DNA of 24,691 nucleotides, from assembly GCA_048938895.1 (NCBI GenBank), contig JBHLLU010000036.1:1-24691 (forward strand), written 5' to 3'. Below the pieces are notes generated by a model. That model had not been told where the DNA came from. It made no database searches and saw only the letters and a list, made by a program, of their open reading frames with translations. The first letter of the stretch is position 1; the number at the start of each line of letters is the position of its first letter. The DNA comes from Promethearchaeota archaeon. Its GTDB lineage: Archaea; Asgardarchaeota; Lokiarchaeia; Sigyniarchaeales; SOKP01. Made by a program: the position numbers and the translations under genes. Positions 3,274-24,641 of this stretch are shown here, in pieces.

Positions 3274-3388
3274 GAACTATTGAGATTTTTTTAAAATTAT
3301 TTTGAGCTAAACATTATGTTTTTAAACAGAAGAAGTATAAATTATATTGAATTGAATCCAAAAAATAATTCTAAATAAGGAAAAAATT

Positions 3389-4510
3389 ATGACAACTATT
3401 GAAAAATTTATTGAAGCAAATCCCCTTGAGAATCCATGGATTAGTAAATGGAAAAATGAAGGAAAGAAAGTTATGGGGTATTTTTGTTCATACATACCTG
3501 AAGAAATATTGTATGCTGCTGATATATTACCTATCAGGATGAGAGCAAGGTCCTGTACTGATACACCTATGGGAGATGCATATATGACTCCAACAGCTTG
3601 TAGTTTTACAAGATGTTGTCTTGAATTAGCGAATAGAAATGAATATAAATTCCTTGATGGAATAATTTCCAGCAATTCCTGTGATCAGATTAGACGGCTT
3701 TATGATAATATTAGATATAAAGCTCCATTTCCGTTTCATTATATTCTGGGCGTTCCAGGTTTTTTAAATACTACAACACTTGACTGGTTTAAACATGAGA
3801 TCTCAAAATTTAAAGAAACTTTGGAGGATCAATTTGATGTTAAGATTTCTAATGAAAAACTAAGAAAAGCCATAAAAACCTATAATGAATCTCGTACACT
3901 TCTTAAAGAATTATATATGCTTAGAAAAAAAGACAATCCTCCAATCACAGGTACTGAGACATTAAATATTCTTACAGGAGGAATTTCGATGCCAAGGGAA
4001 GAGTTTAATAATCTCCTATCCCAACAACTTAAAGAACTTAATACCAAAGAAGTTAACTCTGAGTATAAAGCAAGGATAATGGTAATTGGAAGTATGCTTG
4101 ATGAACCAGAGTATATGAAAATAATCGAAGACTTGGGAGGATTAATTGTTACTGATTCCCTCTGTTTTGGCTCTAGATATTTTTGGGATTTAGTTGATGA
4201 GAAAAAAGATCCACTAGATGCACTTACTGAACGTTACTTATCAAAAATATCATGCCCACGAATGACTGATGGACACCCCAAAAGAGCAGAATTTATGATG
4301 AATCTAATAAAAGAATTCAATGTAGATGGAGTTATTTTTCAAAGAATAAAGTTTTGTGCAATCTGGTGGGCAGAAATATTTATGTTGCGAAATAGATTAG
4401 AAAAGGAAGGAATTCCATTTCTCGAATTAGAAAGAGAGTATGTATTGAGTGGTGCTGGTGCCATGAGAACAAGAGTTCAGACATTTATTGAAATATTAGA
4501 AGGGAGGTGA
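3389..4510 (+). CDS. 2-hydroxyacyl-CoA dehydratase / benzoyl-CoA reductase family subunit (HgdB/FldC/BcrC/BzdN-like)
   Basis: WK..GKKVMGYFCSYIPEEILYAA.ILP, ACSF, NSCDQIRR, DSLCFGSRYF, SCPR, VDGVIF..KFC, IPFLELE.EY, RTRVQTFIE. Confidence 0.92.
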   Translation: MTTIEKFIEANPLENPWISKWKNEGKKVMGYFCSYIPEEILYAADILPIRMRARSCTDTPMGDAYMTPTACSFTRCCLELANRNEYKFLDGIISSNSCDQIRRLYDNIRYKAPFPFHYILGVPGFLNTTTLDWFKHEISKFKETLEDQFDVKISNEKLRKAIKTYNESRTLLKELYMLRKKDNPPITGTETLNILTGGISMPREEFNNLLSQQLKELNTKEVNSEYKARIMVIGSMLDEPEYMKIIEDLGGLIVTDSLCFGSRYFWDLVDEKKDPLDALTERYLSKISCPRMTDGHPKRAEFMMNLIKEFNVDGVIFQRIKFCAIWWAEIFMLRNRLEKEGIPFLELEREYVLSGAGAMRTRVQTFIEILEGR

Positions 4511-4516
4511 AGAGGA

Positions 4517-5833
4517 ATGGATGAAGAATCATTTCAAAAATACAAAAAATTAGGAAGAGGAAGCTGGGATAAGGATCTGACTCTCTGGAAAACTATGTAT
4601 AAAGGTTTCGTGACCCAAAATAAAGACGTAGAATTAACGCCATTTATTGAATTATTATTAGATGTATTCCTAAGCATCCCCCGAGCACGTAAGGAGGGAA
4701 GTCCTATAATTATGCATCCATTCAACTTTGAACCTCCAATATTTCATGCTATGAATATAACCCCATTAATGCAAGAAATTTTCAGTGTTGGTTTAGCTCC
4801 GACCCATCTTAACGAATTTTATATTGATCTAACTAATAAAATGGGATACGGGGATAACCCTACACTTTGTAATGCACAGAGACCATTAATTGGCTCTTAT
4901 ATGCAAGGTGCAGCTCCCATGCCCGATTTGCTTTTTTATGTATCAACACCGTGTAATTCCCTAGCAATGAATTATCAGGTTTTCCAAGAATTAACAAAAC
5001 TTCCAACATTTAATATGGATATGCCCTATTGGAATTATGAACAATCTGAGGAATTTTATGACGAGAGAACGCTTGAATATATGGTTAAACAGATAAAAGA
5101 CTTTATTGCTTGGTTGGAAAAGCAGACTAACCAGAAACTTGACCCAGAAAAACTAAAACAGGCAATGATCTGGATTAATGAAGCAAGGCAAAACGTTTTA
5201 GAATTCAATGAGCTTCTAAAAACGGTACCATGCCCTGTACCTAGTCAGACAGGGTTTGGAAATTTTTTCACTATGATAACTCGTGGAGGTACTTTCGATG
5301 GTGTAAAAGCAACCAAATTTATTCGTGATACTGCCGCAGAAAATGTCAAAAAAGGTATTGCTGGCGTTCCAGGAGAGAAACTAAGGATTGCATGGCCTTA
5401 TACACATGTGTTTTTTGACCAAGAGCTATTACCCTGGATAGAAGAGACTTTTCAATCAGTAGTAATTATGGATTTACTTGGATATTATCCTGTTTTACCT
5501 CATGATGTATCAACAATAGAAAAATGTTATGAAAGCCTTGCTATGGGAACTTTGGATTTTTCAATGATTGGTTCATGTAGGGGCCCTGCAGAATATTATG
5601 TTGATTTTGTTCTAAATTATGTAAAGGAATATAAAATAGATTGTGTTATAATTCCAATGCAATTTGCTTGTAAACATGCATATCTTATAACTAGGATTGC
5701 TGCTGAAGCTGTTCGTGAACAATTGGGGATTCCTACCTTGATTTTTGGAGTAGATCCTTATGATTCACGAGAGGTGACTTCAGAAACAGTGAGAAGTAGG
5801 ATAACCGATTTTTTAACTCAAGTAGTCTTGTAA
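4517..5833 (+). CDS. 2-hydroxyacyl-CoA dehydratase / benzoyl-CoA reductase family subunit (HgdA/FldB/BcrB-like), paralog 2
   Basis: Same length (438 aa) as 1957..3273 and colinear with it (YKKLGRGSW.KDLTLWKTMY, IIMHPFNFEP, CNAQRP, STPCNSL, RIAWPYTHVFFDQ, CRGP.EYY, FACKH, YDSREVTSET). GGAGGTGA RBS overlaps the upstream stop codon. Confidence 0.88.
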   Translation: MDEESFQKYKKLGRGSWDKDLTLWKTMYKGFVTQNKDVELTPFIELLLDVFLSIPRARKEGSPIIMHPFNFEPPIFHAMNITPLMQEIFSVGLAPTHLNEFYIDLTNKMGYGDNPTLCNAQRPLIGSYMQGAAPMPDLLFYVSTPCNSLAMNYQVFQELTKLPTFNMDMPYWNYEQSEEFYDERTLEYMVKQIKDFIAWLEKQTNQKLDPEKLKQAMIWINEARQNVLEFNELLKTVPCPVPSQTGFGNFFTMITRGGTFDGVKATKFIRDTAAENVKKGIAGVPGEKLRIAWPYTHVFFDQELLPWIEETFQSVVIMDLLGYYPVLPHDVSTIEKCYESLAMGTLDFSMIGSCRGPAEYYVDFVLNYVKEYKIDCVIIPMQFACKHAYLITRIAAEAVREQLGIPTLIFGVDPYDSREVTSETVRSRITDFLTQVVL

Positions 5834-5849
5834 AGAGGGATTACATAGT

Positions 5850-6632
5850 ATGATTGTAGCTGGATGTGATGTAGGTTCTTTAACTGGAAAAGCTGTAATA
5901 TTAAAAGATGGTAAGGTTTTATCCTATAGCATTGTCCCAACGACGCCGAAACCGGAAAGAACTGCTAAGAATGCAATGGATGCAGCACTTATAAAAGAAA
6001 ATTTAAGTCTAAATGACATTGAATTTATTGTAGGTACTGGATATGGAAGAGTAAAAATTCCTTTCGCGAATTCAGAAATATCTGAATTAACCTGTCATGG
6101 AAGGGGAGCTCATTCATTTATCCCATCAATAAGAACAATAATTGACGTAGGAGGTCAAGATTGTAAAGTAATAAAAGTAGATAAGAATGGAAAGATTCTT
6201 GATTTTGCTATGAATGATAAATGCGCGGCAGGAACAGGGAGGTTTCTTGAAGTTATGGCTAAAACATTGGAATTAAAACTTGAAGAACTTGGACCTATTT
6301 CTTTAGAAGCTAAAAACCAGGCTAAAATTACTGCACAATGTAGTGTTTTTGCTGAGACTGAAGTTGTGAGTCTTATGGCTGATGGAATAGAAGTCTCTGA
6401 TATAGTTGCCGGAATTCATGATGCCATTGCATCTAGAATAATGTCTCTTGTCTATAGAGTCGGTCTCGAAGAGGATTTCACCATAACTGGAGGAGTTGCT
6501 AAAAATACAGGAGTTGTTACATATCTTGAGAAAAGAATTGGCGTTGAAGCAAAAGATTTACCTATTGATCCTCAGATAATAGGGGCTTTAGGAGCAGCGT
6601 TAATTGCTAAAGACCAGTTAGAATCTCAATAA
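5850..6632 (+). CDS. ATP-dependent CoA-substrate-specific enzyme activase (HgdC/FldI/BcrAD/BadFG family, ASKHA fold)
   Basis: GCDVGSLTGK, GTGYGR, SELTCHGRGA, IDVGGQDCK, MNDKCAAGTGRFLE, CSVFAETEV, TGGVAKN, PQIIGALGAAL. Confidence 0.96.
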   Translation: MIVAGCDVGSLTGKAVILKDGKVLSYSIVPTTPKPERTAKNAMDAALIKENLSLNDIEFIVGTGYGRVKIPFANSEISELTCHGRGAHSFIPSIRTIIDVGGQDCKVIKVDKNGKILDFAMNDKCAAGTGRFLEVMAKTLELKLEELGPISLEAKNQAKITAQCSVFAETEVVSLMADGIEVSDIVAGIHDAIASRIMSLVYRVGLEEDFTITGGVAKNTGVVTYLEKRIGVEAKDLPIDPQIIGALGAALIAKDQLESQ

Positions 6633-11492: not shown

Positions 11493-12026
11493 ATGTATGA
11501 CGCTACTTATAAGGTAGTAATTTTCGGCGATGCGGGATGTGGTAAAACCACACTCACTCAGAGATTTCTAACTAACTTATTTAAGGGTGACACTAAAATG
11601 ACAATTGGTGTAGATTTTGAGGTAAAAAGTTTAGAAATAAATGAAAAAAAGGTAAAACTACAAATCTGGGATTTTGGTGGTGAAGAACGATTCAGATTTT
11701 TATTACCCACCTACGTTAGAGGTGCTAATGGTGCACTTTTTATGTATGATGTCACCAATTATTCATCATTAGCCCATATTGACGATTGGCTCTTAGTTGT
11801 GCGAAAGGAAATCAAAACTGACCAAGATATATTCCCAATTATCGTAGTCGGTGGAAAAGCAGATTTACTAGATGATAGAGAAGTATCTGGAGATGAAGGT
11901 ATAAATATTGCAAAATCAAGAGGAGTAGACGGATTTATTGAGTGTAGTTCTAAAACGGGGGAAAATGTCGATGAGACTTTTGATGCTTTAACGAGATTAA
12001 TGATGCAAAAATCAAAATTATTATAA
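11493..12026 (+). CDS. Rab-like small GTPase (Ras superfamily), Asgard eukaryotic signature protein
   Basis: G1 GDAGCGKT, G2 TIGVDF, KLQIWDFGGEERF, YVRGANGA..YDVT, G4 GGKAD, G5 ECSSKTGENV. No C-terminal Cys prenylation motif. Confidence 0.96.
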   Translation: MYDATYKVVIFGDAGCGKTTLTQRFLTNLFKGDTKMTIGVDFEVKSLEINEKKVKLQIWDFGGEERFRFLLPTYVRGANGALFMYDVTNYSSLAHIDDWLLVVRKEIKTDQDIFPIIVVGGKADLLDDREVSGDEGINIAKSRGVDGFIECSSKTGENVDETFDALTRLMMQKSKLL

Positions 12027-12044
12027 AACAAATAATAGTAGTTT

Positions 12045-12983
12045 TTAGATTTCTATATCTTGGCTCTCTAATGCTTCTTGCTGTTTTAATCTAAGAGTTT
12101 TCCTTCTGCTAGAAACCATTATCTGAAAATCCAAATCTTTCTTATAATCATCCGAGAATTTTAAAATATTTTCAATAAGGCTATCATTATTACTTTCTTC
12201 TTTGATAAAAATACCATCAAATATAGGTATTTCAGAATACTTTCCTACTAAAATTTCAAGCATTTCTTCGGGTAATACATCAGATCTGTCTTTAATTGCT
12301 ATACCCATCATTTCTTCTAGCTTGTCATACATTTCTCGTTTACTAAATTGGCAGAGAACACATTTAGAACTACGATTCTTGAAAATATTTAAAATTGTTA
12401 TCCCAATTAGGAATTTGAAATTCCGTATTAAAGTCTTCTTATCCCCACTCTGAAATTTTGCAATGTATTTATCAACATGTTTCTCAGCATCGAAATATAA
12501 ACCTGCAAAGAATAATGCTCTTTCAAAATAAGCGGGAACGATGCAAAATATTCTCGTAAACCAAAAAGGTTTTATCCTTTTTGGGGGATCTTCATAAAAA
12601 ATGTAGTATACAATCCTCCCATCTCTTTCTTTATATAGAGTCGATTCCTTTTTTAGCATATTCAGGTAAGTCGAAATTGTCGATCGGGCGATCTCCTTAA
12701 AGTATTTCTTATATTCTTGCTCAACCTCTCCTGTTGTAATCTTCTTTTTACCCTCTAAGTAAAATTTTAAAATTATTCCAAGAATTCTATTTTCATGGAG
12801 TCTTCCCGTTTTTATCTGCTGTTCTTCAGATTCATCTTCTCTAATCTGATATAAAAAAGCTATCTCCGGAGCAAATTCTTGTATTACTTTATCAATGATT
12901 AAAAGTTCAGAATCGTTTATTTGAATGCTATCAAACTTTCCAAGTTTGATATCTATGTCTTTAATTTTTGAATTTTCCGACAA
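12045..12983 (-). CDS. Putative winged helix-turn-helix DNA-binding protein with uncharacterised C-terminal domain
   Basis: ITTGEVEQEYKKYFKEIARSTISTYLNMLKKESTLYKERDGRIVYY fits a BlaI/ArsR-like wHTH; C-terminal region has CVLC. TTG start. Confidence 0.7.
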   Translation of the reverse strand: MSENSKIKDIDIKLGKFDSIQINDSELLIIDKVIQEFAPEIAFLYQIREDESEEQQIKTGRLHENRILGIILKFYLEGKKKITTGEVEQEYKKYFKEIARSTISTYLNMLKKESTLYKERDGRIVYYIFYEDPPKRIKPFWFTRIFCIVPAYFERALFFAGLYFDAEKHVDKYIAKFQSGDKKTLIRNFKFLIGITILNIFKNRSSKCVLCQFSKREMYDKLEEMMGIAIKDRSDVLPEEMLEILVGKYSEIPIFDGIFIKEESNNDSLIENILKFSDDYKKDLDFQIMVSSRRKTLRLKQQEALESQDIEI

Positions 12984-13242: not shown

Positions 13243-15015
13243 CTATTTCTTATATAACGGATCTGCTTCTTGTAATGCTCGTCTCTGTACTTTTCCTATG
13301 AAGTTTTTTGGGAGTTCACCCATGATTGAAACCGAATAAGGACATTTGTATGGTGCCATATTCTTCATTGCCCAATCTTTAATAGATTGAGGGGATAAAT
13401 CACAATCCTCACGAATAGAAACCCATGCTTTTACTATTTCACCAAATTCTTCATGAGGTAACCCTGCAACAGCAGCCTCAGTAATGTTAGGATGTTTCAT
13501 TAGAAGCTCCTCAACCTCTTTAGGGAAAATGGAATATCCCTTGGATTTAATCATTTGTTTTTTTCTATCTCGTATCTCGATTGTTCCATCCTCATTCATA
13601 AATCCAATATCTCCTGTATGTAACCATCTTTTTCCATCATAAATTTTTAATGTTTCATCAGTTTCTTCTGGATTATCCAAGTATTTTATCATTACTTGAG
13701 GGCCAGTAATGCATATCTCCCCTGTGTGTTCGATACCAAAATTAACATCTTCAGGATTTCCTAAAGTAATCGGACCTTCCAAAAAGTTATCTACAGGCCA
13801 AATCCCCCATTCTGTACCAGGGAAAGGCATTCCAATACTACCAATTGGACTTTCACCGAATAAATTACCCGCACTCACCGCAGGACTTGCTTCTGATAAT
13901 CCATAGCCTTCAACAATTCTACCACCAGTATTCTTTACAAATTCATCACGGACCTGCCGATGTAATGGGCCTGCACTGGAAATACATAGAACTAATTTAC
14001 CCATTACCTTAGGGTACCTTCTCTTAAGGTTTTTGAATTCTGCCAATCTTTTAAACAACATCTCAGTACCTGCATAAATTAGACCTTCCTCACAAGGCAA
14101 TTGTTCGATTATTTCACATAACTCATTTTGGGAAGGCGGTGTTGGGAATAGCATTACCCATCCTCCTATAGTTAATGTTGTATTCATCACTACCGTATGA
14201 GCAAAACTATGAAATAATGGAAGGATTCCGATATTCCCTATCCCTGGCTTTTCCCCCCCTAACCACAACTTGCATTGTTCAGCATTAGATACTACATTGA
14301 AATGAGTTAACACTGCCGCTTTTGGTAAACCCGTGGTCCCTCCTGTCATTATATATGTCGCAGGATGAGTTGTTACATCAATATTTATGCTATCAGCTTC
14401 TGGTTTTGATTTAAGAAGATCTAAGAATTTTATCGCCCCAGGGAAATCCACTTTCCCTGCTGGAATTTTCTTTACAAACTTCCCAACTGCTTTTTTTATA
14501 CCTTTTATATTTGTAATATCTGCTAGATTGGTATATACTATTGTTTCTATATCAATATCATTAATAATTGGTTTAATAAATTGGTTATAAAGGGCATCTA
14601 ATACTATCAACACTTTAGCTTTTGTTATATCCAGTTGATGTAAAATTTCAATTGGTTGATATGTAGGATTGATACCACTGACTATTGCCCCAATCCTCGT
14701 AACTGCATAATATCCGATCATATATTGGATACAATTTGGCATATGTAGTGCAACAACATCACCACTTGTAATCCCTAAGTTTTTTAGTCCTGTAGCTAAT
14801 GATCTGACATAACTCTGAAATTGTTTATAAGTAATCCAGGTATCTAAGAACCAAATAAAGTTGCTATCTGCATATTTCTTAACCTGTTCATCTAGAAGTT
14901 CGTTTAGGGATTTTTCTTCAAATGTAGTATTGAAAGAAACACCCTCAGGCCACCATTTCTTAAACCATCGTTTATTCTCATCAACATAATAGGGATATGA
15001 AATATCTAACTCCAT
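13243..15015 (-). CDS. Long-chain fatty acid--CoA ligase (AMP-forming acyl-CoA synthetase, FadD-like)
   Basis: MTGGTTGLPKAA, LPLFHSF, EGYGLSEASP, GEICITGPQVM, WLHTGDIG, DRKKQMI, P.EVE, PKNFIGKVQRR. Confidence 0.95.
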   Translation of the reverse strand: MELDISYPYYVDENKRWFKKWWPEGVSFNTTFEEKSLNELLDEQVKKYADSNFIWFLDTWITYKQFQSYVRSLATGLKNLGITSGDVVALHMPNCIQYMIGYYAVTRIGAIVSGINPTYQPIEILHQLDITKAKVLIVLDALYNQFIKPIINDIDIETIVYTNLADITNIKGIKKAVGKFVKKIPAGKVDFPGAIKFLDLLKSKPEADSINIDVTTHPATYIMTGGTTGLPKAAVLTHFNVVSNAEQCKLWLGGEKPGIGNIGILPLFHSFAHTVVMNTTLTIGGWVMLFPTPPSQNELCEIIEQLPCEEGLIYAGTEMLFKRLAEFKNLKRRYPKVMGKLVLCISSAGPLHRQVRDEFVKNTGGRIVEGYGLSEASPAVSAGNLFGESPIGSIGMPFPGTEWGIWPVDNFLEGPITLGNPEDVNFGIEHTGEICITGPQVMIKYLDNPEETDETLKIYDGKRWLHTGDIGFMNEDGTIEIRDRKKQMIKSKGYSIFPKEVEELLMKHPNITEAAVAGLPHEEFGEIVKAWVSIREDCDLSPQSIKDWAMKNMAPYKCPYSVSIMGELPKNFIGKVQRRALQEADPLYKK

Positions 15016-15140: not shown

Positions 15141-17198
15141 TTAAAATCTACTATCCTTTCTTCTTTTAATTAATACTGTAGCGACACCTACCAGGCCAAC
15201 ACCTGCAATTAAAACTATTAAAGCCCAGAATCCCTCTGATTGGAAAACCATATATACTGAAAAGGTTGGATCATGCCAAACTCCGTAAGCAAGCCCATTA
15301 AATTCGGGATAACATACAGCATAGACCATTACATTAAATTCAGTAGTGATACTAATATCAGAGGCAAAAGTTTGAGACGTTGTACCATTTTCAAATGTAA
15401 ATGTGTCATGACGATCCATTTCCCACTCCCATAAAAGAAGTGGCATAATATTCGTACTTGCGTTATATTGAGGTGCTGTTGTTCTATCCATCCCATATTC
15501 ATAAAAAGGACCAGCAATATCTACAAAATCAAGCTTTTGAGCGGCTTTCTTGCCAATATAATTTCCTACCTTTAATTGATTAGACGTTTCTATATAATCT
15601 TCTTCTGGGTCTAAAAGTACTTCAGGGTCTGTTGGAATTTCATTCACAGCAACATTTAAGTGGAAGTGTAATACAGTTGAAACATAGATAATGGCTAAAT
15701 CTAGCCCTGCGATAGCTGCATTCGGTCCGGAACCCCCATTCCAAGGTGCAAAAAATTGATCTAATTTTAATAAACCTTTTGCCACTTTCAGATCAGGATC
15801 TTTAGTTGGAATAAATGTAAATCCAAAATAAATATACTCTAAATTTTCCTCTGGTGCTTTCAAATATGAATCTAAATCGACGAACATCGGTACCGCAGAA
15901 ATGTTTGCATTCCTTAAAGTTAAACCCCAAGATATGCTTTTATCATCTCTATTAATTTTTGGTTTACTAAAGACGAAATCTTCAACTGTACCTAAAATAA
16001 GTCTGTGGGTAAGTTCAGAACTTTGCGGAAGCTGCATCGGATCGCCTTCTGAGTCCAATACTGGTTGACCAAGATTATCTGTTACATTTGCATAGTTAGC
16101 AGAAATTCTTCCGTCTGGAATAGCATCATCATATAAGAAGGCACCTGCCAAATGATGTGTAAATAAATATAATTCAATATCACATCCACTAAAGGCATTA
16201 GCAATCATTTGCTCTGGTGATCCGCCAATACCCCTTGCAGCATTAAGAATTTCAGAAACATCAATATGAATCTCAAAATTTTTAACCCATAATTGGATCA
16301 AATCAAAAGAAAATTGAGTCCACACCGTTTCTGCTAGATCTCCAGGTACAGTTGAGGTTAAAAGCCATTCAACATAGCTATCTTTCCATGTTGTTGCATT
16401 ATTCATCCAATCTGCTAAATATGGTGCAGGCACAGGACTATCATCCCCTCCACCAATGGCATAATCTGGACCAGTTAACCAATAGGTTTTACTAAGGGAA
16501 TAATTATATGGATCAATATTTAACTTCTGCCATGTAATGGGATTTAAGATAAATAATTCATCCCCGGTAAATATATCATTAATATGAATCAAAAACCAAG
16601 TTAAAACGGAAATACCTTCTTGAATTAAATCCCTGGGTACTTCTTGCCCCAATACATCCTGATAATAAATCAATTTCTTGAAGAAACCCAATAATTTATT
16701 TACTGCCTCAATAAATGACTTATCATTATCCCATATAACAAGTGTTACGGCAGCACCGATTTCTAAACTAAAAGAATAACTTCCCGACTTTGTGACCTCA
16801 CAATAAGCAATTCCCTCATCTACAGGGGTGTTATAGTCTCTTGGGAAATAATAATATTCTTTTTCAGTTCCTGTAAAGTTTTTTGTTCCTGAAATATGTC
16901 GAGTTGTATTTGCACTTAAAACATAAACATTCTTCAATGTTTCATGTGAGTTGAGATCTAATCCCTGTAATAATATTGTTTGAAATACTGTTCCTAATAT
17001 TGCTCCAGCATAACCCAGATTTTCACCAAAGAGTGCTCCAAAGCCACCTCGAAAACCATCAAAAATGCCAACATCCTGGTCGAAACCATAATTATCATCT
17101 GTGGTATTTAATTCACCATTTACAGCAAGAGGCATTGAACCAATCGAAACGAATAGTATTGTAAAAATCATTAATGATTTGGTGTTTATACTTTTCAT
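15141..17198 (-). CDS. Large secreted, C-terminally membrane-anchored cell-surface (glyco)protein of unknown function
   Basis: Signal peptide MKSINTKSLMIFTILFVSIGSMPLA from the ATG at 17198 (preceded by GGTGA; ORF track starts at 17207); acidic ectodomain with 9 N-x-S/T sequons; YP.F.G...WHDPTF then a single TM helix and a basic tail KRRKDSRF. Confidence 0.8.
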   Translation of the reverse strand: MKSINTKSLMIFTILFVSIGSMPLAVNGELNTTDDNYGFDQDVGIFDGFRGGFGALFGENLGYAGAILGTVFQTILLQGLDLNSHETLKNVYVLSANTTRHISGTKNFTGTEKEYYYFPRDYNTPVDEGIAYCEVTKSGSYSFSLEIGAAVTLVIWDNDKSFIEAVNKLLGFFKKLIYYQDVLGQEVPRDLIQEGISVLTWFLIHINDIFTGDELFILNPITWQKLNIDPYNYSLSKTYWLTGPDYAIGGGDDSPVPAPYLADWMNNATTWKDSYVEWLLTSTVPGDLAETVWTQFSFDLIQLWVKNFEIHIDVSEILNAARGIGGSPEQMIANAFSGCDIELYLFTHHLAGAFLYDDAIPDGRISANYANVTDNLGQPVLDSEGDPMQLPQSSELTHRLILGTVEDFVFSKPKINRDDKSISWGLTLRNANISAVPMFVDLDSYLKAPEENLEYIYFGFTFIPTKDPDLKVAKGLLKLDQFFAPWNGGSGPNAAIAGLDLAIIYVSTVLHFHLNVAVNEIPTDPEVLLDPEEDYIETSNQLKVGNYIGKKAAQKLDFVDIAGPFYEYGMDRTTAPQYNASTNIMPLLLWEWEMDRHDTFTFENGTTSQTFASDISITTEFNVMVYAVCYPEFNGLAYGVWHDPTFSVYMVFQSEGFWALIVLIAGVGLVGVATVLIKRRKDSRF

Positions 17199-17339
17199 AA
17201 TCACCACATTTTTTTTAAAATTGGTTAAAGTATTAAAATAATAAATAAAATTTGGCTTTTTAATAATTTACCTTCTAATCTAGTAGAATCTTTAAAAATT
17301 AAAAAGATATTATCAATTCTGGAAAATTTTGCTACGATT

Positions 17340-18344
17340 TTACTCTATCCGCAAGAAAGTATAAAAAAATACGAAAAGATATAAAATTGCTGAAACTAGT
17401 AGACTCCAGACTCTTAAAATCTGAGATATCTCAGAGCTTGTAAAAATAACATTAGAACCAATAAACACTGCAGCAATAAAATATCCTAATAAATGACTTT
17501 TAAAACTTTTAATTTTAGTTTTTCCTCGTATGAGATTTACAAATGAGATAAAGATAATGATCACAAATCCAATGATATAGAAGAAATTTATCACCTCAAA
17601 ACCGAAAATATCTAAGTATAGAAAACATCCGAATAATACAATCTCAAGTATTCTCACGTTCCAAAACCTTTGCTTTTGTGATGGTTCCATAAACAACTGT
17701 TCATATTCAGCTACTCCGGAGGTCATAAAAAGAATTATCAAAGATCCGATTGCTAGTGCTGTAAATAATGAATATGAAATAATATAGAGATATGGAAGAA
17801 TAGGTACCCAAATAACATTCCATAAAAAATCCAGTAAATTAAGATATTCTGGTAGTACTATAATTGAACAGAAAACAGGAAGAATAGCAAAAATAATCAT
17901 CATAATCCATGTTAGAGTCGAAATTTTAGTATCTTCTTCCCATCTTTTCTTTTTAAAAGTAGTTAACCTCCATGCAAATGAGGCAAAACTTACCACCGAA
18001 ACTAAAGGTGTAATAAATGGGAATACAAAAATGAATAGAATATAAACAGCGTTAACCCCATAGAAAAATTTTAATCTTGAAGGGACTACGCTAATAGTTT
18101 TATCAATATCATCTAATGTATCTGAAAAACGTTCGGCAAATAAAATTAAAAAAAAAAGCCAAGATACGCAAAACACAATAGGGCAGAGTAATTTTATTAA
18201 TCCTACTTTAAGGGTATTATCATTCGAAAACCATAAATTAAAATCTGCCAGATTATAAATTAAGAAGATTGCTACAGGTAGGAGAATAATTGTAAGTAAA
18301 ATTATCAATCGACTTACTATTAAACCTTTAACCTCCTTTGGCAT
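17340..18344 (-). CDS. Polytopic membrane protein of unknown function (about 9-10 TM)
   Basis: Repeated approximately 20-residue hydrophobic segments; no family motif recognised. ATG at 18344 preferred over GTG at 18359. Confidence 0.8.
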   Translation of the reverse strand: MPKEVKGLIVSRLIILLTIILLPVAIFLIYNLADFNLWFSNDNTLKVGLIKLLCPIVFCVSWLFFLILFAERFSDTLDDIDKTISVVPSRLKFFYGVNAVYILFIFVFPFITPLVSVVSFASFAWRLTTFKKKRWEEDTKISTLTWIMMIIFAILPVFCSIIVLPEYLNLLDFLWNVIWVPILPYLYIISYSLFTALAIGSLIILFMTSGVAEYEQLFMEPSQKQRFWNVRILEIVLFGCFLYLDIFGFEVINFFYIIGFVIIIFISFVNLIRGKTKIKSFKSHLLGYFIAAVFIGSNVIFTSSEISQILRVWSLLVSAILYLFVFFYTFLRIE

Positions 18345-18488
18345 TAGCTCTATTACCACATTGAACTTTTAATATTATAATAGAAATGTTATTAATATTT
18401 TTATGTTCCTCTGACATTAAAACATTATCTTTAATTTGCTCCTTTTCATTGACATCACTTTTAAACAAAAAAATAATTTTAGTTTATA

Positions 18489-19250
18489 CTAGATTTTAGA
18501 CATCTTGGCGCCACAGTTAGTGCAAAACAAATCATCAGTAAGTATTTTAGCTCCGCAATTCGTACAAGTAGCTGGGGTGGATGCGACAGAACTTTCTATT
18601 GCTCGATTTACATCCGAAATTTCAGTTACATCTTCTTTACTTTTTGATTTCACTTTTTTCCCCTTAGATCCTCCCGGTTTATATTTTAGACTCCCAATAA
18701 AAGCCCCAAAAACAGCACCTACGAGACATCCTTCCAAAATAGAAGATAACACCGCCACAAGAAAGGGTAAATTTGTCAATCCTGTTAATAAACCATCCAT
18801 TATCGCAGATCCTAATGGTAAAGCTATTGCTAAAACCAAATATATAACTGAAAAGATAATCATATAGCCGATCCCTATTGCAAGGCTGGAATTAATGCCG
18901 CCTCGAGGAGAATGAGCAAAAATCGCGCTTATAATAACGCATGTAAGTATCCAGGGTAAAGTAATAGCAATTATAAGCAAGATGTCCTCCGGACGATACA
19001 TTATACACCAATGGATTGGAAAGATAAAAATAAGAGCAAGCCCTATAAATGCCCCTGCCAGAAATTCCACAAAAAAACCAGCACCGGTCGGTAGGCTACC
19101 AGTTATAATACTCAATGCATCATCGATATTTTCAATCAATCCCCCGGTCACTCCCTCAGTTAAATTTAAGAACCTAAAAGAAATCCAAGACATCGGAATT
19201 AGAAAAATCATCCCCACTATACCGGAACCAATCACACGCTTAAATCCCAT
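18489..19250 (-). CDS. Gly-rich membrane protein (about 5-6 TM) with C-terminal zinc ribbon
   Basis: Hydrophobic Gly-rich helices, a Lys-rich linker (KPGGSKGKKVKSKSK), then CTNCGAKILTDDLFCTNCGAK. Confidence 0.85.
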   Translation of the reverse strand: MGFKRVIGSGIVGMIFLIPMSWISFRFLNLTEGVTGGLIENIDDALSIITGSLPTGAGFFVEFLAGAFIGLALIFIFPIHWCIMYRPEDILLIIAITLPWILTCVIISAIFAHSPRGGINSSLAIGIGYMIIFSVIYLVLAIALPLGSAIMDGLLTGLTNLPFLVAVLSSILEGCLVGAVFGAFIGSLKYKPGGSKGKKVKSKSKEDVTEISDVNRAIESSVASTPATCTNCGAKILTDDLFCTNCGAKMSKI

Positions 19251-19442
19251 AGTTATCCCCTTATATTCCTCTCAATTTTATTTATTTAATTCAAAAACTA
19301 AAGTAATTTGATAATAACTCAGACAATATTTATATTTATTTTTTTGTTTTCAAAAGGTGATTCCATTAATCTATGAGTATATTCCTACAAGAAAGAATTT
19401 TTTTATAAAAATTAGAAAAAATTGTATGAAATAAAATTTGAT

Positions 19443-20132
19443 TTATTGAATTTTAGTGATTCTTCCATTATCCATCTGAATTTTTTTGGTTCCATACTGG
19501 GATAAATCCCTATGCGTAACAAAAATTATAGTTGTTTCCATTTCTTTATTAATCTTCTTTAATAAATCCATAACTTGCTTTTCACTTTCAGGATCCAAGT
19601 TACCAGTAGCTTCGTCTGCTAAAATCACTCTTGGTCTATGAATAATCGCTCGAGCAATTCCACACCTCTGCTTTTCTCCCCCTGACATTTGAACCGGGTA
19701 GTGATCTTTGCGATCAAGTAAATCAACATCTCTCAATGCAGCAATTGCTCTATTTTCAATTTCTTTTTGACGTAAAACAGTTGGCCATAAAACAGCCTCT
19801 ACATTTTCCATTGCAGTTAATGTATTTACCAGATTAAAATCTTGAAATACAAAACCAATTTTTTGACGTCTAAGTCTACTTAACCTATCTTCTGTTGCTC
19901 GTGCGATATTTTCCCCATCAAATATTATTCTTCCTGAATCAGGTAAATCTAACCCCGATAAAACATTAAGGAGTGTAGACTTTCCACAACCGGTTGGACC
20001 TTGGACAACAGCAAATTCTCCTGCTCTAATTTTCAAATTAACGTCTGCTAAAGCTCGAATAATGGCACCTGCTCTTCGATATTCTTTATTAATGTCCACG
20101 GCTTCAATCATAATATCTTTATCTGCTGACAA
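19443..20132 (-). CDS. ABC transporter ATP-binding protein, LolD/FtsE/MacB (type VII) family
   Basis: Walker A GPTGCGKST, IGFVFQDFNL, signature MSGGEKQR, Walker B ILADEATGNLD, H-loop VTH. TTG start with GAGGTG RBS. Confidence 0.96.
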   Translation of the reverse strand: MSADKDIMIEAVDINKEYRRAGAIIRALADVNLKIRAGEFAVVQGPTGCGKSTLLNVLSGLDLPDSGRIIFDGENIARATEDRLSRLRRQKIGFVFQDFNLVNTLTAMENVEAVLWPTVLRQKEIENRAIAALRDVDLLDRKDHYPVQMSGGEKQRCGIARAIIHRPRVILADEATGNLDPESEKQVMDLLKKINKEMETTIIFVTHRDLSQYGTKKIQMDNGRITKIQ

Positions 20133-20145
20133 TTTCTTTTACACC

Positions 20146-20697
20146 TCATTCTCCTACTTTTTTTAATGCTATTATTGGTCTTACCTTTAATACCTTTCTA
20201 TAGGCTAAAAGAAAAGCAATTATTTGCACTAAAATGAAAATGGCACTTGTAATTATGACCGGAATCAACTGTACTAAGATTACATCATTTGTGTTAATCG
20301 AAGGGCTACCCGAGTTAAAATAAGCTAAAGCAGCAGTATAATGAAACAACACTTCAATGACGATAAAAAAACCCACTAAAGTCGTAAAAAATATCATTCC
20401 AGAAACTAGAGCTAAAATATTCTTATTTGTATAACCAATACATTTAAAAGTAGCCCATACTCGTCTTCTCCTTGATACTAAAATCCACGCATACAGTAGT
20501 GAAAGAAAGAGACTCGTTCCAAAAAAGATGGCGAGGAGATAGTATGCTTCTTCACCTAATCCGCCGGGTACAACCGCTAAATGCCAGAATAAACTCGTCA
20601 AAAAAATTAAGATCGTATAAATGAGAGTAAAAACTATGAAAATTTTTTTCTCTCTTAGAGATAGCAAAATAGCCTTCCTCAGCATTCTAAAAGCCAA
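20146..20697 (-). CDS. Minimal FtsX/MacB-like ABC permease (4 TM, no extracytoplasmic domain)
   Basis: VSRRRRVWATFKCIGYTNKNI matches the FtsX-domain 'ERRREIA.LKALG' segment; C-terminal AYRKVLKVRPIIALKK matches 'A.RA..L.P.EAL'; 13 bp upstream of the LolD-type ATPase; GGTGA RBS before a TTG start. Confidence 0.85.
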   Translation of the reverse strand: MAFRMLRKAILLSLREKKIFIVFTLIYTILIFLTSLFWHLAVVPGGLGEEAYYLLAIFFGTSLFLSLLYAWILVSRRRRVWATFKCIGYTNKNILALVSGMIFFTTLVGFFIVIEVLFHYTAALAYFNSGSPSINTNDVILVQLIPVIITSAIFILVQIIAFLLAYRKVLKVRPIIALKKVGE

Positions 20698-20804
20698 TTA
20701 TTGTCACCATTTTATATTTAAATTTGATCTTTGTTTATGTTTAAATTTATAATTGATTTTATTTATTTTATTTATAACAATTTAATAATAAATATTTGGT
20801 TATA
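20698..20804. promoter_or_regulatory. Divergent promoter region shared by the permease-ATPase operon and profilin
   Basis: About 107 bp, extremely AT-rich spacer between head-to-head starts with several TTTATA/TTTAAA TATA-like boxes; the functional boxes cannot be assigned from sequence alone. Confidence 0.5.
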
Positions 20805-21206
20805 ATGTCTGAAATTGAAGGAATTATTGATAACTTATTAGATGAAGAACAAAATATTTTTGGAGTAGCTATCATAAGTAAAGATGGAAGATTAATAACC
20901 CAAACTGAAAATTGGGACCTTACCAATGATCTAGGTTTATTAAACGAGTTATTAAATCAAAAACTGGCATTGGGTGAAAAAGGGATAACAAGTCTCACGA
21001 TACAAGGAATAAAATATATGATTGTGGAAAATACAGAAGAGAGAAAAATTGGCACAAATATTAGCGGAAAAGGGCATTTGATAGTATGTCCAATCCCTAT
21101 AGGAGGAACTGGAGCTTTAATTACATATATTAATCCTCAAGTAGGTCCAAGAGATGCGCTTTTTAATGTTCAAGAATACGCAAAGAAACTTGAAACTTTT
21201 ATTTAA
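20805..21206 (+). CDS. Profilin (Lokiarchaeal profilin-1 type; actin-monomer-binding eukaryotic signature protein)
   Basis: IEGIID.LL..E.N..G.AII.KDG..ITQTENW...NDL..LNE.LN.KLAL..KGIT.L.IQGIKYMIVENTEERKIGTNI.GKGH...CPIPIGG.GALITY.NP..GPRD.LFNVQEYAKKL closely matches the structurally characterised Loki profilin as I recall it. ATG at 20805 preferred over TTG at 20796. Confidence 0.93.
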   Translation: MSEIEGIIDNLLDEEQNIFGVAIISKDGRLITQTENWDLTNDLGLLNELLNQKLALGEKGITSLTIQGIKYMIVENTEERKIGTNISGKGHLIVCPIPIGGTGALITYINPQVGPRDALFNVQEYAKKLETFI

Positions 21207-21223
21207 GAATTATCAATTTTTTA

Positions 21224-22321
21224 TCATTTGAAGCAATTCCAATAGTTGGATAATAAACCTTTTAACGCTGACTTTATTTTTAACACCTCTTCTATCTTAG
21301 ATTCAGTTGAGAGTTGAAACTGTTCAAAAACAGGAATGTCATATTTTTCTCCTAAAAGCCCTTGTATGATGGCATACACACATTGAGGGAGCCCAAATAG
21401 ACTATAACCTCCTTCTAGAATAAAAGCTAATTTACCCTCACATATTCTTTTCGAGATCTTTAACAATCTTTTAGTGAATCTATTATATGAAGAAGATGTT
21501 AAAAGACCATTTCCAATAGGATCAGAAAAATGGAGATCAAATCCAGCGGCAATTATAATTATTTCAGGTTTAAATTCATCTAATACTGGTTCTAAAACAT
21601 CCATAAATTCCAAGAACTCATCATCAGTGATATTCATTGGTATTGGGAAGTTAATATTCTTACCAAGACCCTCATGCTCACCTAATTCATCAATAAACCC
21701 TAAATCTCCTTCAACAAAATCAAATTCATGAACAGAAAAATAGAGTACATTAGGATCGTTATAAAAATATTGAACTATTCCGTCCCCAAAATGAGCATCA
21801 ATATCAACAATTGCGATCTTAGTATTTTTCTGCAATTCTTTGTTCAAATATAATATTGCATTTGCAATATTATTGAATATACAAAGTCCGGAAGCCTTTT
21901 CTTGTAATGCATGATGTCCTGGTGGTCTAACAAGTGCAAAAGACTGATTAACATCAGATTTTAACACACTAGTTATTGCTTGTATCGTTCCTCCAACTGC
22001 TTTTTTTGCTAACTCGTAAGTATCTTCTGTTATAAATATTTCCTCGTCTGCTATTCCGAATCCTCTATTTGAAGAATTTTTAATAGAGGTTATATGATAA
22101 TTTGTATGTGCTAAATCTAATACAGAATCTTCTATCAATATAGGCTCCATCTTAATAATTCTTTCATTCAAAAATATATTTCGAATTTCTAGATAATCAT
22201 GAATTACTTTAATTCGTAAGGGTGTTTCATAGGAAAGAAAGATAGGATGTGGATGCGGAGGTGTATTTTTATAGCTAAAATCATCATCAGTTATTATTCC
22301 CACTTTATTAAGTTCCGTCAT
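21224..22321 (-). CDS. Zn-dependent histone deacetylase family protein (class II HDAC/AcuC/APAH-like)
   Basis: RPPGHHA, GLCIFNNIA, DIDAHFGDG, SVHE, GKNINFP, AGFDLHFSDPIG, LEGGYS. ATG at 22321 (ORF track begins at 22342). Confidence 0.95.
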   Translation of the reverse strand: MTELNKVGIITDDDFSYKNTPPHPHPIFLSYETPLRIKVIHDYLEIRNIFLNERIIKMEPILIEDSVLDLAHTNYHITSIKNSSNRGFGIADEEIFITEDTYELAKKAVGGTIQAITSVLKSDVNQSFALVRPPGHHALQEKASGLCIFNNIANAILYLNKELQKNTKIAIVDIDAHFGDGIVQYFYNDPNVLYFSVHEFDFVEGDLGFIDELGEHEGLGKNINFPIPMNITDDEFLEFMDVLEPVLDEFKPEIIIIAAGFDLHFSDPIGNGLLTSSSYNRFTKRLLKISKRICEGKLAFILEGGYSLFGLPQCVYAIIQGLLGEKYDIPVFEQFQLSTESKIEEVLKIKSALKGLLSNYWNCFK

Positions 22322-22430
22322 TTTAAAAAACCCAATATACAATTTAATAGCTAAATTATTATAATTAAATTTACATACATTTATTTTAAATAAGTTTCAA
22401 TTTTCATGTAAAAAAGGAATTGCATTAAAA

Positions 22431-24641
22431 ATGCCTACAGTAGAAATTATTTATACATTATTATTAAATCTCCTCCCAATAATTATATTAATTATTCCAT
22501 TGGCGTTTATTTGGAAAAAACTGGTTGGAAAATTATATTTTAGGATTGTTGTAGGGATTCTTATCTTTTTTCTTATATACTGGGTTTTTCCAATAATATT
22601 TCAGATTACTGAATCTCCTGATGAATTAACTGTACCTGTAGCTGAGGAAGGAAACGTTGCTTATGGCCTGGGATATATTTTCGCACATTTTGGTTCATTA
22701 ATTTCATTATTTCTTTCCTATCCTTTGATTACACTCCCGTTCATATTTTTTTTAGCTCCCTTTATTTCTTTCCTAATTTCATGGAACAGCTTGAGAAAAG
22801 AAGAGGGTTCAATGAAAGAAAAACTAAAAGAATTAAGCTTTGAAATTAGCGAAAGTCCAATTGACCGAACAAAGAAAGAATTATTAAGAGGAAATTGGAC
22901 ACGGGAAAAAGAAATTCTCAAGTTATTGGTCGTATTATTGCCAATTTCACTCTACTTGCTCCAGGTTATTTTAGAAATCTCTGGTTTGCATGAAGAATCA
23001 ATTACTACAGGGGAAACTGCGTTGGGCTGGTTTCTTGAAATATTATTCGTTTACTTAGCCGTTTTTATTTTTAGTATCGAGATTTTATCATCAAGTCAAA
23101 TAGCATTGAAAGGAAAATTCTTTGGAGAAAAAATACGAGAACAAACTTATAAAAGTCTATACACTATCGGTGCCCCAATGTCTATTTTATCAATTATTCT
23201 CTTTGTTATACAATACCAAGAATCGATAGGGATTATTATTTACTTCTTTGCATACTTTATAATGGCATCAGCAATCTTTATCTTATTTCTCGATATTTTT
23301 GAACCAATCTCTATCTTCTTATTTGCCAAAATAATAAATTGGTGGAAAAATCGAAAGGAAAAGAAAGTTGATAGTTCAAACTTCTATTACGTGTTAATTT
23401 TTGGAGCACTAGCACTTGTCTCCTATCTTATTCTAAATCTAATATTGACAAATTTTGGGTATTCTGCATTATTTGGAGAACCCGGTTCAGTTAAGGAAGA
23501 TTTGATTTATACCGCAGGCGAATATACTACTACTGACCCTTCATTTTATCGCTCTCTCCAATACGATTTAATTATTATCTATGGAATTTTCACCACAGAA
23601 ATTGTGTCTACTGTTATTTTAACATTATTTCTGGCATATGCTTTAAAATATCTGAAAAGTATAGGATTAGGAATCCTGGGGTATCTCCCTTTTATCATCA
23701 TTCTTTCTTTATTACTCGGAAGTTCAGTGAATTATTGGCTTACAGGGAAAATTAGTTATACTCAAATATTCGGAATTGAGTTTTACACACTGAGAACAGC
23801 AAGTTTAACAGCAAAATTACCCCCATTTCTACACGGGTTAGCAGCACCTTATTTGTATACACGTTATATCTTCAATATAATAATATGGGGTATTTTTATC
23901 TTCTATTTTAATAAATCATTCAAAACTAAGAATATACCAATTGGAGAAGAATTCGTTAAAAAAATAGTATTTTCAAACCTAACTGATTTTCTATCATTTG
24001 ATACATATAGCAAAGAAGATATATCGTATTTAATTTCTAAAGAAAAACCTCCTGAGATTAAAGATTTGGAGCAAGAACGTGAAGAAATAAAGGATATATT
24101 AAGAAACTTAGAAAATGACAAACTTTTGGAAGAATTGAAACCTGATGATGAAAATGAGCGTAGAAGATTTTATTTTACATTACGATACCTATACCAAAAC
24201 AATTTGATTGCTATTTGGAAACCAGAGCTAAGCTATCTTTATGAAAAAGCGGAAAAGCAGGGACTTTATATAATATATGATGATGGACGTGGAGTTTTTA
24301 ATTATGCCTTTAAAAGTGATTCTGTTCAAGATCCTGGTTTGGTATCTGGCATGTTCTCAGCAATTACTTCCTTTATAAAGGAAATGACCAAATCTACTGA
24401 AGCTTTAAAAAAAATTGACCACGGGGACATCACAATTCTTTTAGAATATGGTGCTAAAATATTTGGTGCGCTTTTCATAAAAGGAACTCAGAGTTCTGAA
24501 GTGAGAGCCCCTTTAAAAGAATTTGTTCAGAAGTTTGAAGAGAGATACGGAGATGTGTTAAAAGATTGGACTGGAGCCCTTGCTCCTTTTAAAGATACAG
24601 AAAATGATAAACTCGTTGAGGATATTTTCAAAGAAGACTAA
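22431..24641 (+). CDS. Polytopic membrane protein (about 12-13 TM) with cytoplasmic C-terminal longin-like domain
   Basis: About 490 hydrophobic N-terminal residues; C-terminal LYIIYDDGRGVFNY..DPGLVSGMFSAITSFIKEM....LKKIDHGDITILLEYG..IFGALF.....LKEFVQKFEERY...L..W.G..F is the typical Asgard longin pattern. Confidence 0.85.
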   Translation: MPTVEIIYTLLLNLLPIIILIIPLAFIWKKLVGKLYFRIVVGILIFFLIYWVFPIIFQITESPDELTVPVAEEGNVAYGLGYIFAHFGSLISLFLSYPLITLPFIFFLAPFISFLISWNSLRKEEGSMKEKLKELSFEISESPIDRTKKELLRGNWTREKEILKLLVVLLPISLYLLQVILEISGLHEESITTGETALGWFLEILFVYLAVFIFSIEILSSSQIALKGKFFGEKIREQTYKSLYTIGAPMSILSIILFVIQYQESIGIIIYFFAYFIMASAIFILFLDIFEPISIFLFAKIINWWKNRKEKKVDSSNFYYVLIFGALALVSYLILNLILTNFGYSALFGEPGSVKEDLIYTAGEYTTTDPSFYRSLQYDLIIIYGIFTTEIVSTVILTLFLAYALKYLKSIGLGILGYLPFIIILSLLLGSSVNYWLTGKISYTQIFGIEFYTLRTASLTAKLPPFLHGLAAPYLYTRYIFNIIIWGIFIFYFNKSFKTKNIPIGEEFVKKIVFSNLTDFLSFDTYSKEDISYLISKEKPPEIKDLEQEREEIKDILRNLENDKLLEELKPDDENERRRFYFTLRYLYQNNLIAIWKPELSYLYEKAEKQGLYIIYDDGRGVFNYAFKSDSVQDPGLVSGMFSAITSFIKEMTKSTEALKKIDHGDITILLEYGAKIFGALFIKGTQSSEVRAPLKEFVQKFEERYGDVLKDWTGALAPFKDTENDKLVEDIFKED

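Follow-up and report, generated by a model that had tools for sequence, protein, structure and literature searches.

A minimal FtsX/ABC pair beside a profilin gene in Lokiarchaeia: a three-gene neighbourhood conserved across one order, and its possible meaning

Introduction

Canonical permeases of the LolCDE and MacB systems carry a large periplasmic domain, roughly 200 residues in size. FtsEX, another of the described systems closest to the locus considered here, has been reported to interact with the actin-fold protein FtsA in Escherichia coli (PMC7343993) and to require the cofactors SweC and SweD in Bacillus subtilis (PMC6705773). Profilins of Lokiarchaeia, among them that of structure 5zzb, have been reported to inhibit actin polymerisation and to bind phosphatidylinositol 4,5-bisphosphate (PIP2), not polyproline (PMC8410842). 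Asgard profilins, gelsolins and actin have so far been studied as isolated proteins, and a conserved genomic partner of the Loki profilin that is characterised best would offer a concrete candidate for a link to the membrane. Here we examine a stretch of 24,691 nucleotides (hereafter the window) from a Promethearchaeota archaeon of the Lokiarchaeia, in which a profilin gene stands head-to-head with genes for a small FtsX-like permease and an ATP-binding cassette (ABC) ATPase. The window is contig C44 of a 174-contig, 4.65-Mb genome with a G+C content of about 32%.

An initial annotation had proposed a seven-gene, profilin-centred module of membrane remodelling or surface assembly, coupled to the actin cytoskeleton. 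The observation behind that proposal is confirmed and its interpretation partly supported: the conserved unit comprises three genes (FtsX, ABC and profilin), not seven, and it is from their adjacency that a coupling to actin is inferred. The locus could well be a gene neighbourhood conserved at the level of the family around this three-gene core, and we propose, tentatively and from gene neighbourhood, a functional link between the profilin and the FtsX/ABC pair.

Results and Discussion

Conservation of the core within the order

Forty loci from the order of the window's genome, each reaching about 10 kb to either side of the profilin gene, were compared by mapping all proteins of the window onto them. 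FtsX, ABC and profilin occurred together in 38, and their adjacency was found in all four families of the order. Head-to-head arrangement with a gap of at most 226 bp accounted for 34 of these 38 loci (34 of the 37 that are head-to-head at all), while three carried an insertion and one was co-directional. The two exceptions comprise L067, which stops at a contig edge, and L068 (genome G028), which is genuine. In the two further families the core is head-to-head in G002, co-directional in G007 and, through a contig end, ambiguous in G004. Among named loci of Loki type, profilin adjoined FtsX in all 23 that had a flank on that side; the 24th, L146, begins too near its FtsX to judge.

A rearranged, operon-like form of the core occurs in one family. 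Three genomes (L074, G007 and L145) carry the string FtsX-ABC-profilin-TMZnR on one strand, with 14 bp between ABC and profilin in L074, and the adjacency has therefore outlived a change of both order and orientation. Profilin genes are, moreover, sparse: five profilin-like genes are found among the approximately 3979 open reading frames (ORFs) of the window's genome, which corresponds to a chance of about 0.1% per neighbouring position. Retention in four families, survival of the change in order and strand, and this low density stand above the background of retained gene order. The expectation that gene order would be kept beyond close relatives was thus borne out for the core, in 38 of 40 loci over four families, and not for the peripheral genes, which disperse.

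A profilin match at E≤1e-10 was obtained in 93 of the 101 genomes from this order, a count that includes paralogous profilins. Seven genomes (G082, G085, G029, G005, G046, G023 and G080) have neither a profilin orthologue nor a minimal FtsX, and two of these are estimated to be 98-100% complete; the paired absence of these adjacent genes could reflect one unassembled region or joint loss.

Several further observations were made in these loci. In L046, a fragment corresponding to the 38 N-terminal residues of profilin (13354-13467) lies beside FtsX, with the full profilin 3.3 kb off, past an inserted 708-aa gene; it looks like a partial duplication left by the insertion. In three genera of sister family f2, a radical-SAM/SPASM gene, an EMC3/TMCO1-like gene (21.7 bits, below cut-off) and a GtrA-like gene (45.7 bits) stand beside ABC (L071 6061-8426, L072 4657-6984, L073 5697-8148), and contig C140 of the window's genome likewise carries the three together. 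The same three loci encode a tail-anchored, coiled-coil-rich protein of about 230 aa beside or near profilin (L072 10284-10991, L071 10303-10974, L073 12196-12924); a synaptobrevin-like assignment was not adopted for it, the match in this sequence of coiled-coil character reaching 21.5 bits where the cut-off is 26.4, and is kept as a lead only. Finally, L163, L165 and L170, labelled Odinarchaeota, Hermodarchaeota and Hodarchaeota, show the full Loki-type gene order with very high scores, and their taxon labels are probably wrong.

Identity of the core genes

By sequence, the profilin of the window is an orthologue of the solved Loki profilin-1/-2, as the initial annotation's call would require. 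It matches 5yed (Table 1) and 5zzb (2e-64) over residues 5-134, followed by 5zza (2e-11) and 7pbh, entitled 'Profilin' (1e-4), and it is linked by reciprocal best matches to the FtsX-adjacent profilins of sister families f2 and f4. The Pfam model PF00235, built mainly on eukaryotic profilins, gives 21.8 bits, below its gathering cut-off of 25. By analogy with the Loki profilins, actin binding and control of actin polymerisation would be expected of this protein (PMC8410842).

The permease has four hydrophobic blocks by hydropathy (residues 16-48, 50-75, 92-127 and 136-172), corresponding to four transmembrane (TM) helices, and this pattern is conserved across 16 homologues from the phylum. The loop between TM1 and TM2 measures about 12 residues, and from 0 to about 25 in those homologues. 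The family scan revealed no extracytoplasmic domain in the permease and no match to MacB_PCD or any other domain, and a profile search of the PDB with the permease family matched no solved chain by sequence. In a whole-genome scan (PF02687, 36.3 bits), this was the only single-domain FtsX; the remaining 12 matches to the FtsX domain come from frames 642-1412 aa long.

The best NCBIfam matches of the ATPase are FtsE (200.7 bits, equivalog cut-off 264.85) and LolD (198.2 bits, cut-off 307.75), so that by this test it is neither FtsE nor LolD proper. Its best PDB matches are MJ0796 (4.7e-50), LolD (about 1e-44) and the MacB nucleotide-binding domain (1e-40), with BceA also among the closest, which places it, on sequence grounds, in the FtsE/LolD/MacB clade. 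Walker A K51, Q97, SGGE at 150-153, D173-E174 and H207 are invariant in 19 orthologues, and motifs this intact would make the enzyme catalytically competent.

The pair had been described as a type VII ABC system. An FtsX domain (PF02687), four TM helices and an adjoining cognate ATPase of the FtsE/LolD/MacB clade with intact motifs uphold that description, whereas the feature that defines the class, a large extracytoplasmic domain between TM1 and TM2, is missing. The permease would accordingly represent a reduced, four-helix form of the known class.

The ATPase gene starts 13 bp downstream of FtsX, and the two therefore probably form one transcription unit. Between FtsX and profilin lie 98 bp if the latter starts at the TTG at 20796, and 107 bp if it starts at the ATG at 20805, the second figure being the head-to-head distance that had been noted initially; this intergenic sequence has a G+C content of 10%.

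The FtsX/ABC pair in other Asgard lineages

Homologues of the minimal FtsX were detected in 172 of 301 sampled Asgard genomes, with open frames of 166-225 aa in most of the matches listed and about six of 399-416 aa in family f11. Their distribution by family is uneven (69 of 76 genomes in f11, 4 of 4 in f7 and 13 of 19 in f16; 0 of 28 in f9 and 0 of 11 in f31). Several f11 genomes with frames of about 400 aa (G308, G255, G322, G217, G269 and G286) have the FtsX match in a frame of roughly the combined length of FtsX and ABC. These could be natural permease-ATPase fusions; a similar case, G007, proved to be two separate ORFs.

In 20 loci outside the order, FtsX was always followed by the ATPase, and across 42 named loci the pair was found in genomes labelled Odin-, Thor-, Heimdall-, Hod-, Sif-, Borr-, Sigyn- and Atabeyarchaeia, some of these labels being inconsistent with synteny. 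The divergent neighbour of FtsX changes with lineage. In f11 it is a Ras-type GTPase (8 of 8 loci); f30 has a protein of 290 aa that includes an Arf-like GTPase domain, f22 one of 206 aa, and f7 and f25 one of 377-434 aa from no known family; in the remaining lineages, metabolic genes or a co-directional small membrane protein stand beside FtsX. By hhalign (probability 96%, E 5e-9 and 2e-9), two of these neighbours, the f22 protein and, through its N-terminus, the f30 protein, fall into the longin family that also includes the C-terminal domain of the window's 736-aa membrane protein. A hidden Markov model (HMM) of this family gave just these two matches in the 20 stretches searched (up to 20 kb each), both directly next to FtsX. 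The recurrence of GTPase and longin neighbours is suggestive, in few lineages. That FtsX/ABC should be an Asgard membrane mechanotransducer, served on its cytoplasmic face by small regulators from a eukaryote-like repertoire of cytoskeleton and trafficking proteins (profilin in the Loki order, longin proteins and Ras/Arf-type GTPases in other lineages), strikes us as unlikely.

Three candidate relationships were rejected among these neighbours. Firstly, the f11 Ras is not an orthologue of the Ras in the window (11493-12983), the two not being reciprocal best matches. Secondly, an ARPC4-like neighbour in Odin-labelled loci scored 20.4 bits (cut-off 22.2) and 14.4 bits in Pfam; a profile of six sequences found no PDB chain at E≤1, and comparison by hhalign with the alignments of longin and profilin gave no match. 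Thirdly, of nine SNAP-like proteins that follow ABC in f11 and f30, three match PF14938, with a best score of 30.8 bits; the PDB profile gave E of about 0.2 for alpha-SNAP/Sec17 and 0.05 for the RPN9 PCI domain, and the protein was treated as TPR+PCI-like rather than as a SNAP.

Weighing a functional link

Adjacency is the sole link between the profilin and the ABC pair, and several observations weigh with this against a functional tie. Firstly, gene order is retained widely enough that adjacency alone is weak evidence: of 60 neighbouring ORF pairs in eight sister-family loci that have homologues in the window's genome, 29 are still neighbours there, and 15 of 46 (33%) once the 14 focal pairs are removed. 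Genes in the comparison loci were called simply as the longest ORFs; the two loci fetched from the fourth family gave a single pair in all and hence no usable control, and the co-directional L074 gave none, this kind of calling being poor for its sequence. Secondly, the arrangement can be broken. Unrelated genes of 398-708 aa separate profilin from FtsX in three genomes, in stretches of 1.6-3.3 kb, and the shared promoter region is therefore dispensable there; in G028 the two genes stand on separate contigs, and the profilin is followed by other genes over 3.4 kb. Thirdly, no profilin was found near FtsX/ABC in the 20 loci outside the order, nor in a Pfam scan of 18 flanking proteins, and in several lineages the neighbours are metabolic (a CoA-transferase, arginine biosynthesis, an ELP3-like gene). 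The categories of neighbour regarded as interesting were, furthermore, chosen after inspection of the data.

Expression data from the cultured relative MK-D1 add a fourth consideration. Its gene table lists the ABC ATPase, FtsX-like and profilin-like genes consecutively, at 373, 248 and 243 reads per kilobase per million mapped reads (RPKM), and most expressed genes around the trio lie at 170-330 RPKM (PMC7015854, Supplementary Table 3). All three core genes are hence transcribed in this strain. Co-regulation is not shown, since the values resemble those of most surrounding expressed genes. A predicted 1:1:1 complex of FtsX, ABC and profilin (19-row alignments; single copies, not 2:2) scored 0.00, which counts neither for nor against contact. 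Neither profilin nor FtsX is mentioned in the main text of PMC7015854, passages of PMC9834061 and PMC12993045 likewise give no account of a profilin-FtsX/ABC neighbourhood, and no description of one was found in the literature searched, whose scope did not extend to subscription papers and bioRxiv supplements.

Much of this is what would be expected had profilin come to lie beside an ABC exporter of housekeeping function in the order's ancestor and stayed there, small rearrangements being rare, without any functional tie; the ABC pair evidently functions without a profilin neighbour in many lineages. We regard this as a real possibility, albeit a somewhat doubtful one. It sits poorly with an adjacency held in all four families while every other gene of the window disperses in complete sister-family genomes, and with the altered order and orientation, at 14 bp between ABC and profilin, that random rearrangement would rarely yield. 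Nor does it account for GTPase or longin regulators appearing again as divergent neighbours in other lineages.

A second alternative concerns the pair itself, which might be an ordinary small exporter or flippase (for instance for a lipid, a peptide or a glycan carrier) whose neighbours reflect envelope biogenesis and not the cytoskeleton. The families nearest to the ATPase include exporters (LolD, MacB, bacteriocin and darobactin) beside FtsE, the GtrA-like and EMC3/TMCO1-like genes stand beside ABC in three f2 genera, and membrane and surface protein genes come after ABC in the window. Yet with four TM helices per subunit and no extracytoplasmic domain, the permease is missing the parts with which known type VII exporters bind and expel their substrate, and the profilin, GTPase and longin neighbours are left unexplained; we consider such a role improbable.

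A model of the core

The functional link that we favour tentatively would take the following form. The core would consist of a two-gene FtsX/ABC operon, found in many Asgard lineages, and an orthologue of Loki profilin-1/2, transcribed the opposite way out of an AT-rich region, about 100 bp long, that both share. The ABC pair would move no solute through a pore; by analogy with FtsEX, LolCDE and MacB, ATP would drive motion of its four-helix TM bundles. Because there is no external domain, this motion would act within the plane of the membrane or on its cytoplasmic face, on a partner membrane protein or a lipid. Expression of the pair, and probably its activity too, would be coordinated with profilin, either by co-regulation from the shared promoter region or by direct contact. 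The contact between FtsEX and FtsA may serve as a precedent for a type VII system meeting an actin-fold protein (PMC7343993), and the PIP2 binding reported for Loki profilins could tie membrane events at the complex to local actin polymerisation. TMZnR253 and TM339, which follow ABC in the window, are candidate partners by analogy with SweC and SweD of the B. subtilis FtsEX. Together with Surf688, the HDAC-family enzyme and the longin protein, they would be lineage-specific companions with transcription units of their own, and not obligatory.

On the broader reading of FtsX/ABC as an Asgard mechanotransducer, judged unlikely above, ATP-driven membrane events in Lokiarchaeia would be tied to local delivery of profilin-actin, for example at the base or tip of actin-filled protrusions, and a prokaryotic ABC engine would be wired into a forerunner of eukaryotic membrane-cytoskeleton coupling. 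The presence and transcription of the core in a cultured strain render the proposed link between profilin and the pair directly testable. Should the arrangement be mere synteny, the picture is still corrected, from a conserved unit of seven genes to one of three. Independently of this, a four-helix FtsX that lacks an extracytoplasmic domain and recurs in many Asgard lineages departs from the usual make-up of type VII systems, and what a motor of this kind would act on becomes a question in its own right.

Genes surrounding the core

Gene identities in the window were taken from the ORF listing and from family searches (Pfam, NCBIfam and PDB sequence matches), and all genes of the initial annotation were recovered where it had placed them (Table 1).

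Table 1. Features of the profilin neighbourhood within the window.
Feature	Coordinates	Strand	Description
Surf688, surface protein	15141-17207	-	688 aa from GTG; 685 aa from ATG three codons in
TM339, multi-TM protein	17340-18359	-	339 aa, about 9 hydrophobic segments
TMZnR253, TM + zinc ribbon	18489-19250	-	253 aa, PF13240 at 3.3e-8
ABC ATPase	19443-20132	-	PF00005 at 1.4e-33
FtsX-like permease	20146-20697	-	183 aa; PF02687 36.2 bits, cut-off 25.5
Divergent intergenic region FtsX/profilin	20698-20795	.	presumed back-to-back promoter site
Profilin	20796-21206	+	PDB 5yed at 1e-66
HDAC-family enzyme	21224-22342	-	PF00850 at 2.6e-72
736-aa membrane protein with longin domain	22431-24641	+	about 11-13 hydrophobic segments, soluble C-terminus

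The co-oriented gaps after ABC, TMZnR253 and TM339 measure 192, 129 and 132 bp, and each contains runs of 5-8 T no farther than about 45 nt from the stop codon of the gene upstream. These runs suggest separate transcription units, as the initial annotation had itself cautioned. On the other side, the HDAC gene converges with profilin across a gap of 17 bp, and the gene for the 736-aa protein diverges from the HDAC gene.

Surf688 has, by hydropathy and sequence, a hydrophobic segment at its N-terminus, nine N-x-S/T sequons and, at its C-terminus, a TM helix followed by the tail KRRKDSRF, and is predicted to be a glycosylated, membrane-anchored surface protein with a signal-like segment. It matched no family in Pfam or NCBIfam and was present at the locus in 22 of the 40 loci. 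A paralogue lies at the start of contig C24 of the same genome (475-2496, HMM E 4e-166).

TM339 likewise matched nothing in Pfam or NCBIfam and fits no described family. The family is single-copy and occurs in 236 of 301 genomes of the phylum. Within the window's family the gene stands beside ABC (30 of 40 loci had it at the locus), and it also follows ABC in a distant lineage (L116/L140); outside these two it was not seen beside ABC. Its recurrent neighbours in other lineages (L172-L191) are proteins of about 260 aa and about 125 aa, not the ABC pair.

TMZnR253 has 5-6 TM segments and a cytoplasmic C-terminal zinc ribbon. It occupies the same position as in the window, after ABC, in 25 of 40 loci and lies far from the core elsewhere in f2.

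The HDAC-family assignment proved sound: PF00850 matched with 244 bits, and the motifs GHH, DIDAH, FD..H and EGGY, which supply the catalytic His-His pair, the Asp/His/Asp ligands of the metal and the Tyr, are readable in the translation. Searches of the PDB returned single HDAC6 catalytic domains at about 1e-42, HDAC10 at 5e-48 and HDAH at 9e-47, and a summed 1.5e-83 for the full-length tandem HDAC6 chain. The enzyme is, on this evidence of sequence, a class II-like zinc deacetylase to which HDAC6 domains, HDAC10 and the bacterial HDAH are about equally close. In 33 of the 40 loci it stands no more than 5 kb from profilin, and the longin protein was present at the locus in 26 of 40.

The fullest version of the initial proposal would make all seven genes one actin-coupled membrane-remodelling or surface-assembly machine, in which the ABC pair, together with TMZnR253 and TM339, would put the anchored surface protein in place or reorganise it, with the HDAC and longin proteins as regulators. 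Several genera of the window's family do share an 11-gene order (Ras, winged helix-turn-helix, AMP-ligase, Surf688, TM339, TMZnR, ABC, FtsX, profilin, HDAC, longin protein), leftover pairs persist elsewhere (TM339-Surf688 and TMZnR-profilin in G013, TMZnR-Surf688 in G032), TM339 follows ABC in L116/L140, and f11 has an HDAC orthologue at a distance of about 6 kb from the pair. Other observations speak against it. In complete or large sister-family genomes all five peripheral genes are present tens to thousands of kilobases from the core (50 kb to megabases in the complete f2 genomes), genera g2 and g7 are without TMZnR and Surf688 at the locus, and TM339 is present in families that have no ABC pair (27 of 28 genomes in f9, 21 of 21 in f26). 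Combined with the oligo-T tracts in gaps of 129-192 bp, which suggest separate transcripts, and with the want of a profilin neighbour outside the order, this does not describe a single operon or an obligatory seven-gene module, and we hold the seven-gene machine to be very unlikely. Four of the peripheral genes accompany the core mainly within the window's own family. TM339-Surf688 was also considered as a general pair and rejected, being adjacent just in the window's family and G013, and not in 19 other loci.

The longin-domain membrane protein

Hydropathy predicts some 11-13 TM helices in the 736-aa protein; they are followed by a cytoplasmic C-terminal longin domain (residues about 608-736). 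Sequence families gave this call no support: residues 600-736 matched no Pfam family at E up to 10, and a PDB profile search with the C-terminal domain returned nothing relevant; the Atlas lead for a longin domain (score 0.88) was taken as a lead only. A first model, from orthologues only, reached a predicted local distance difference test (pLDDT) of 53.9 and was discarded in favour of a deeper alignment. The second model, of residues 600-736 from 37 diverse rows, reached a pLDDT of 89.3 and a predicted TM-score (pTM) of 0.83, with the topology b-b-a-b-b-b-a-a. Foldseek matched it to AP sigma, Mon1/Ccz1, TRAPP subunits, Sec22b and LAMTOR at E of 1e-4 to 2e-3 and TM-scores of 0.5-0.65, and also to an Asgard roadblock protein. 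The longin domain of the initial annotation is in this way borne out by a confident model. The superfamily appears certain from that model; the longin sub-type rests on topology, because roadblock proteins match too.

The domain family is large, with 4440 representatives at E≤1e-3 in a profile search of 1.84 billion representatives, in many architectures, and 47 of its genes occur in the window's genome. The domain (24228-24638 in the window) is often found C-terminally on membrane proteins, including MFS transporters, and also in giant proteins, the longest of them about 3000 aa.

Other features of the window

Two further regions of the window were noted. At 1957-6632, three genes for the D-component of 2-hydroxyacyl-CoA dehydratase (HGD-D) are followed by a BcrAD/BadFG-type activator ATPase, with an arginase-family gene and a CCG/FAD-oxidase pair adjoining, an arrangement that resembles a cluster for the fermentation of amino acids. 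The stretch 11493-12983 encodes a small GTPase of the Ras family (PF00071, 2e-45) next to a winged-helix-like protein of 312 aa, a pair that keeps its position across several genera of the window's family. A role in anti-phage defence was rejected, PADLOC models having given nothing specific: generic ABC-ATPase matches on one protein and none on the other seven.

Comparison with described systems

FtsEX is one of the closest described systems, in that both pair a four-TM FtsX-domain permease with an adjoining cognate ATPase, and the best NCBIfam match of the ATPase is FtsE. FtsEX is described as a transmitter of signal and force rather than a transporter, and as linked to the actin-fold FtsA (PMC7343993). 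It differs in activating EnvC, PcsB or RipC through an extracytoplasmic domain that the present permease does not possess; the host here, moreover, has no peptidoglycan, and the neighbour is profilin, not FtsA or FtsZ. SweC and SweD of the B. subtilis FtsEX-CwlO system offer a precedent for extra cofactor proteins (PMC6705773), and their likeness to TMZnR253 and TM339 would be functional only.

LolCDE, MacB and the archaeal, LolD-like MJ0796 share the ATPase clade and the arrangement of permease plus ATPase genes. Here, in contrast, the TM1-TM2 loop is short, and the LolD score falls under its cut-off. Among the peripheral proteins, the modelled domain of the 736-aa protein shares its b-b-a-b-b-b-a-a topology with longin regulators of GTPases (AP sigma, Mon1-Ccz1, TRAPP and Sec22b) and with Asgard roadblock/longin proteins, and differs from those regulators in being fused to a polytopic membrane protein and in having no Pfam longin match. 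Finally, the profilin matches Loki profilin-1/-2 (5yed/5yee and 5zzb) over nearly its full length and shows no difference as a protein; what is new is its conserved genomic partner.

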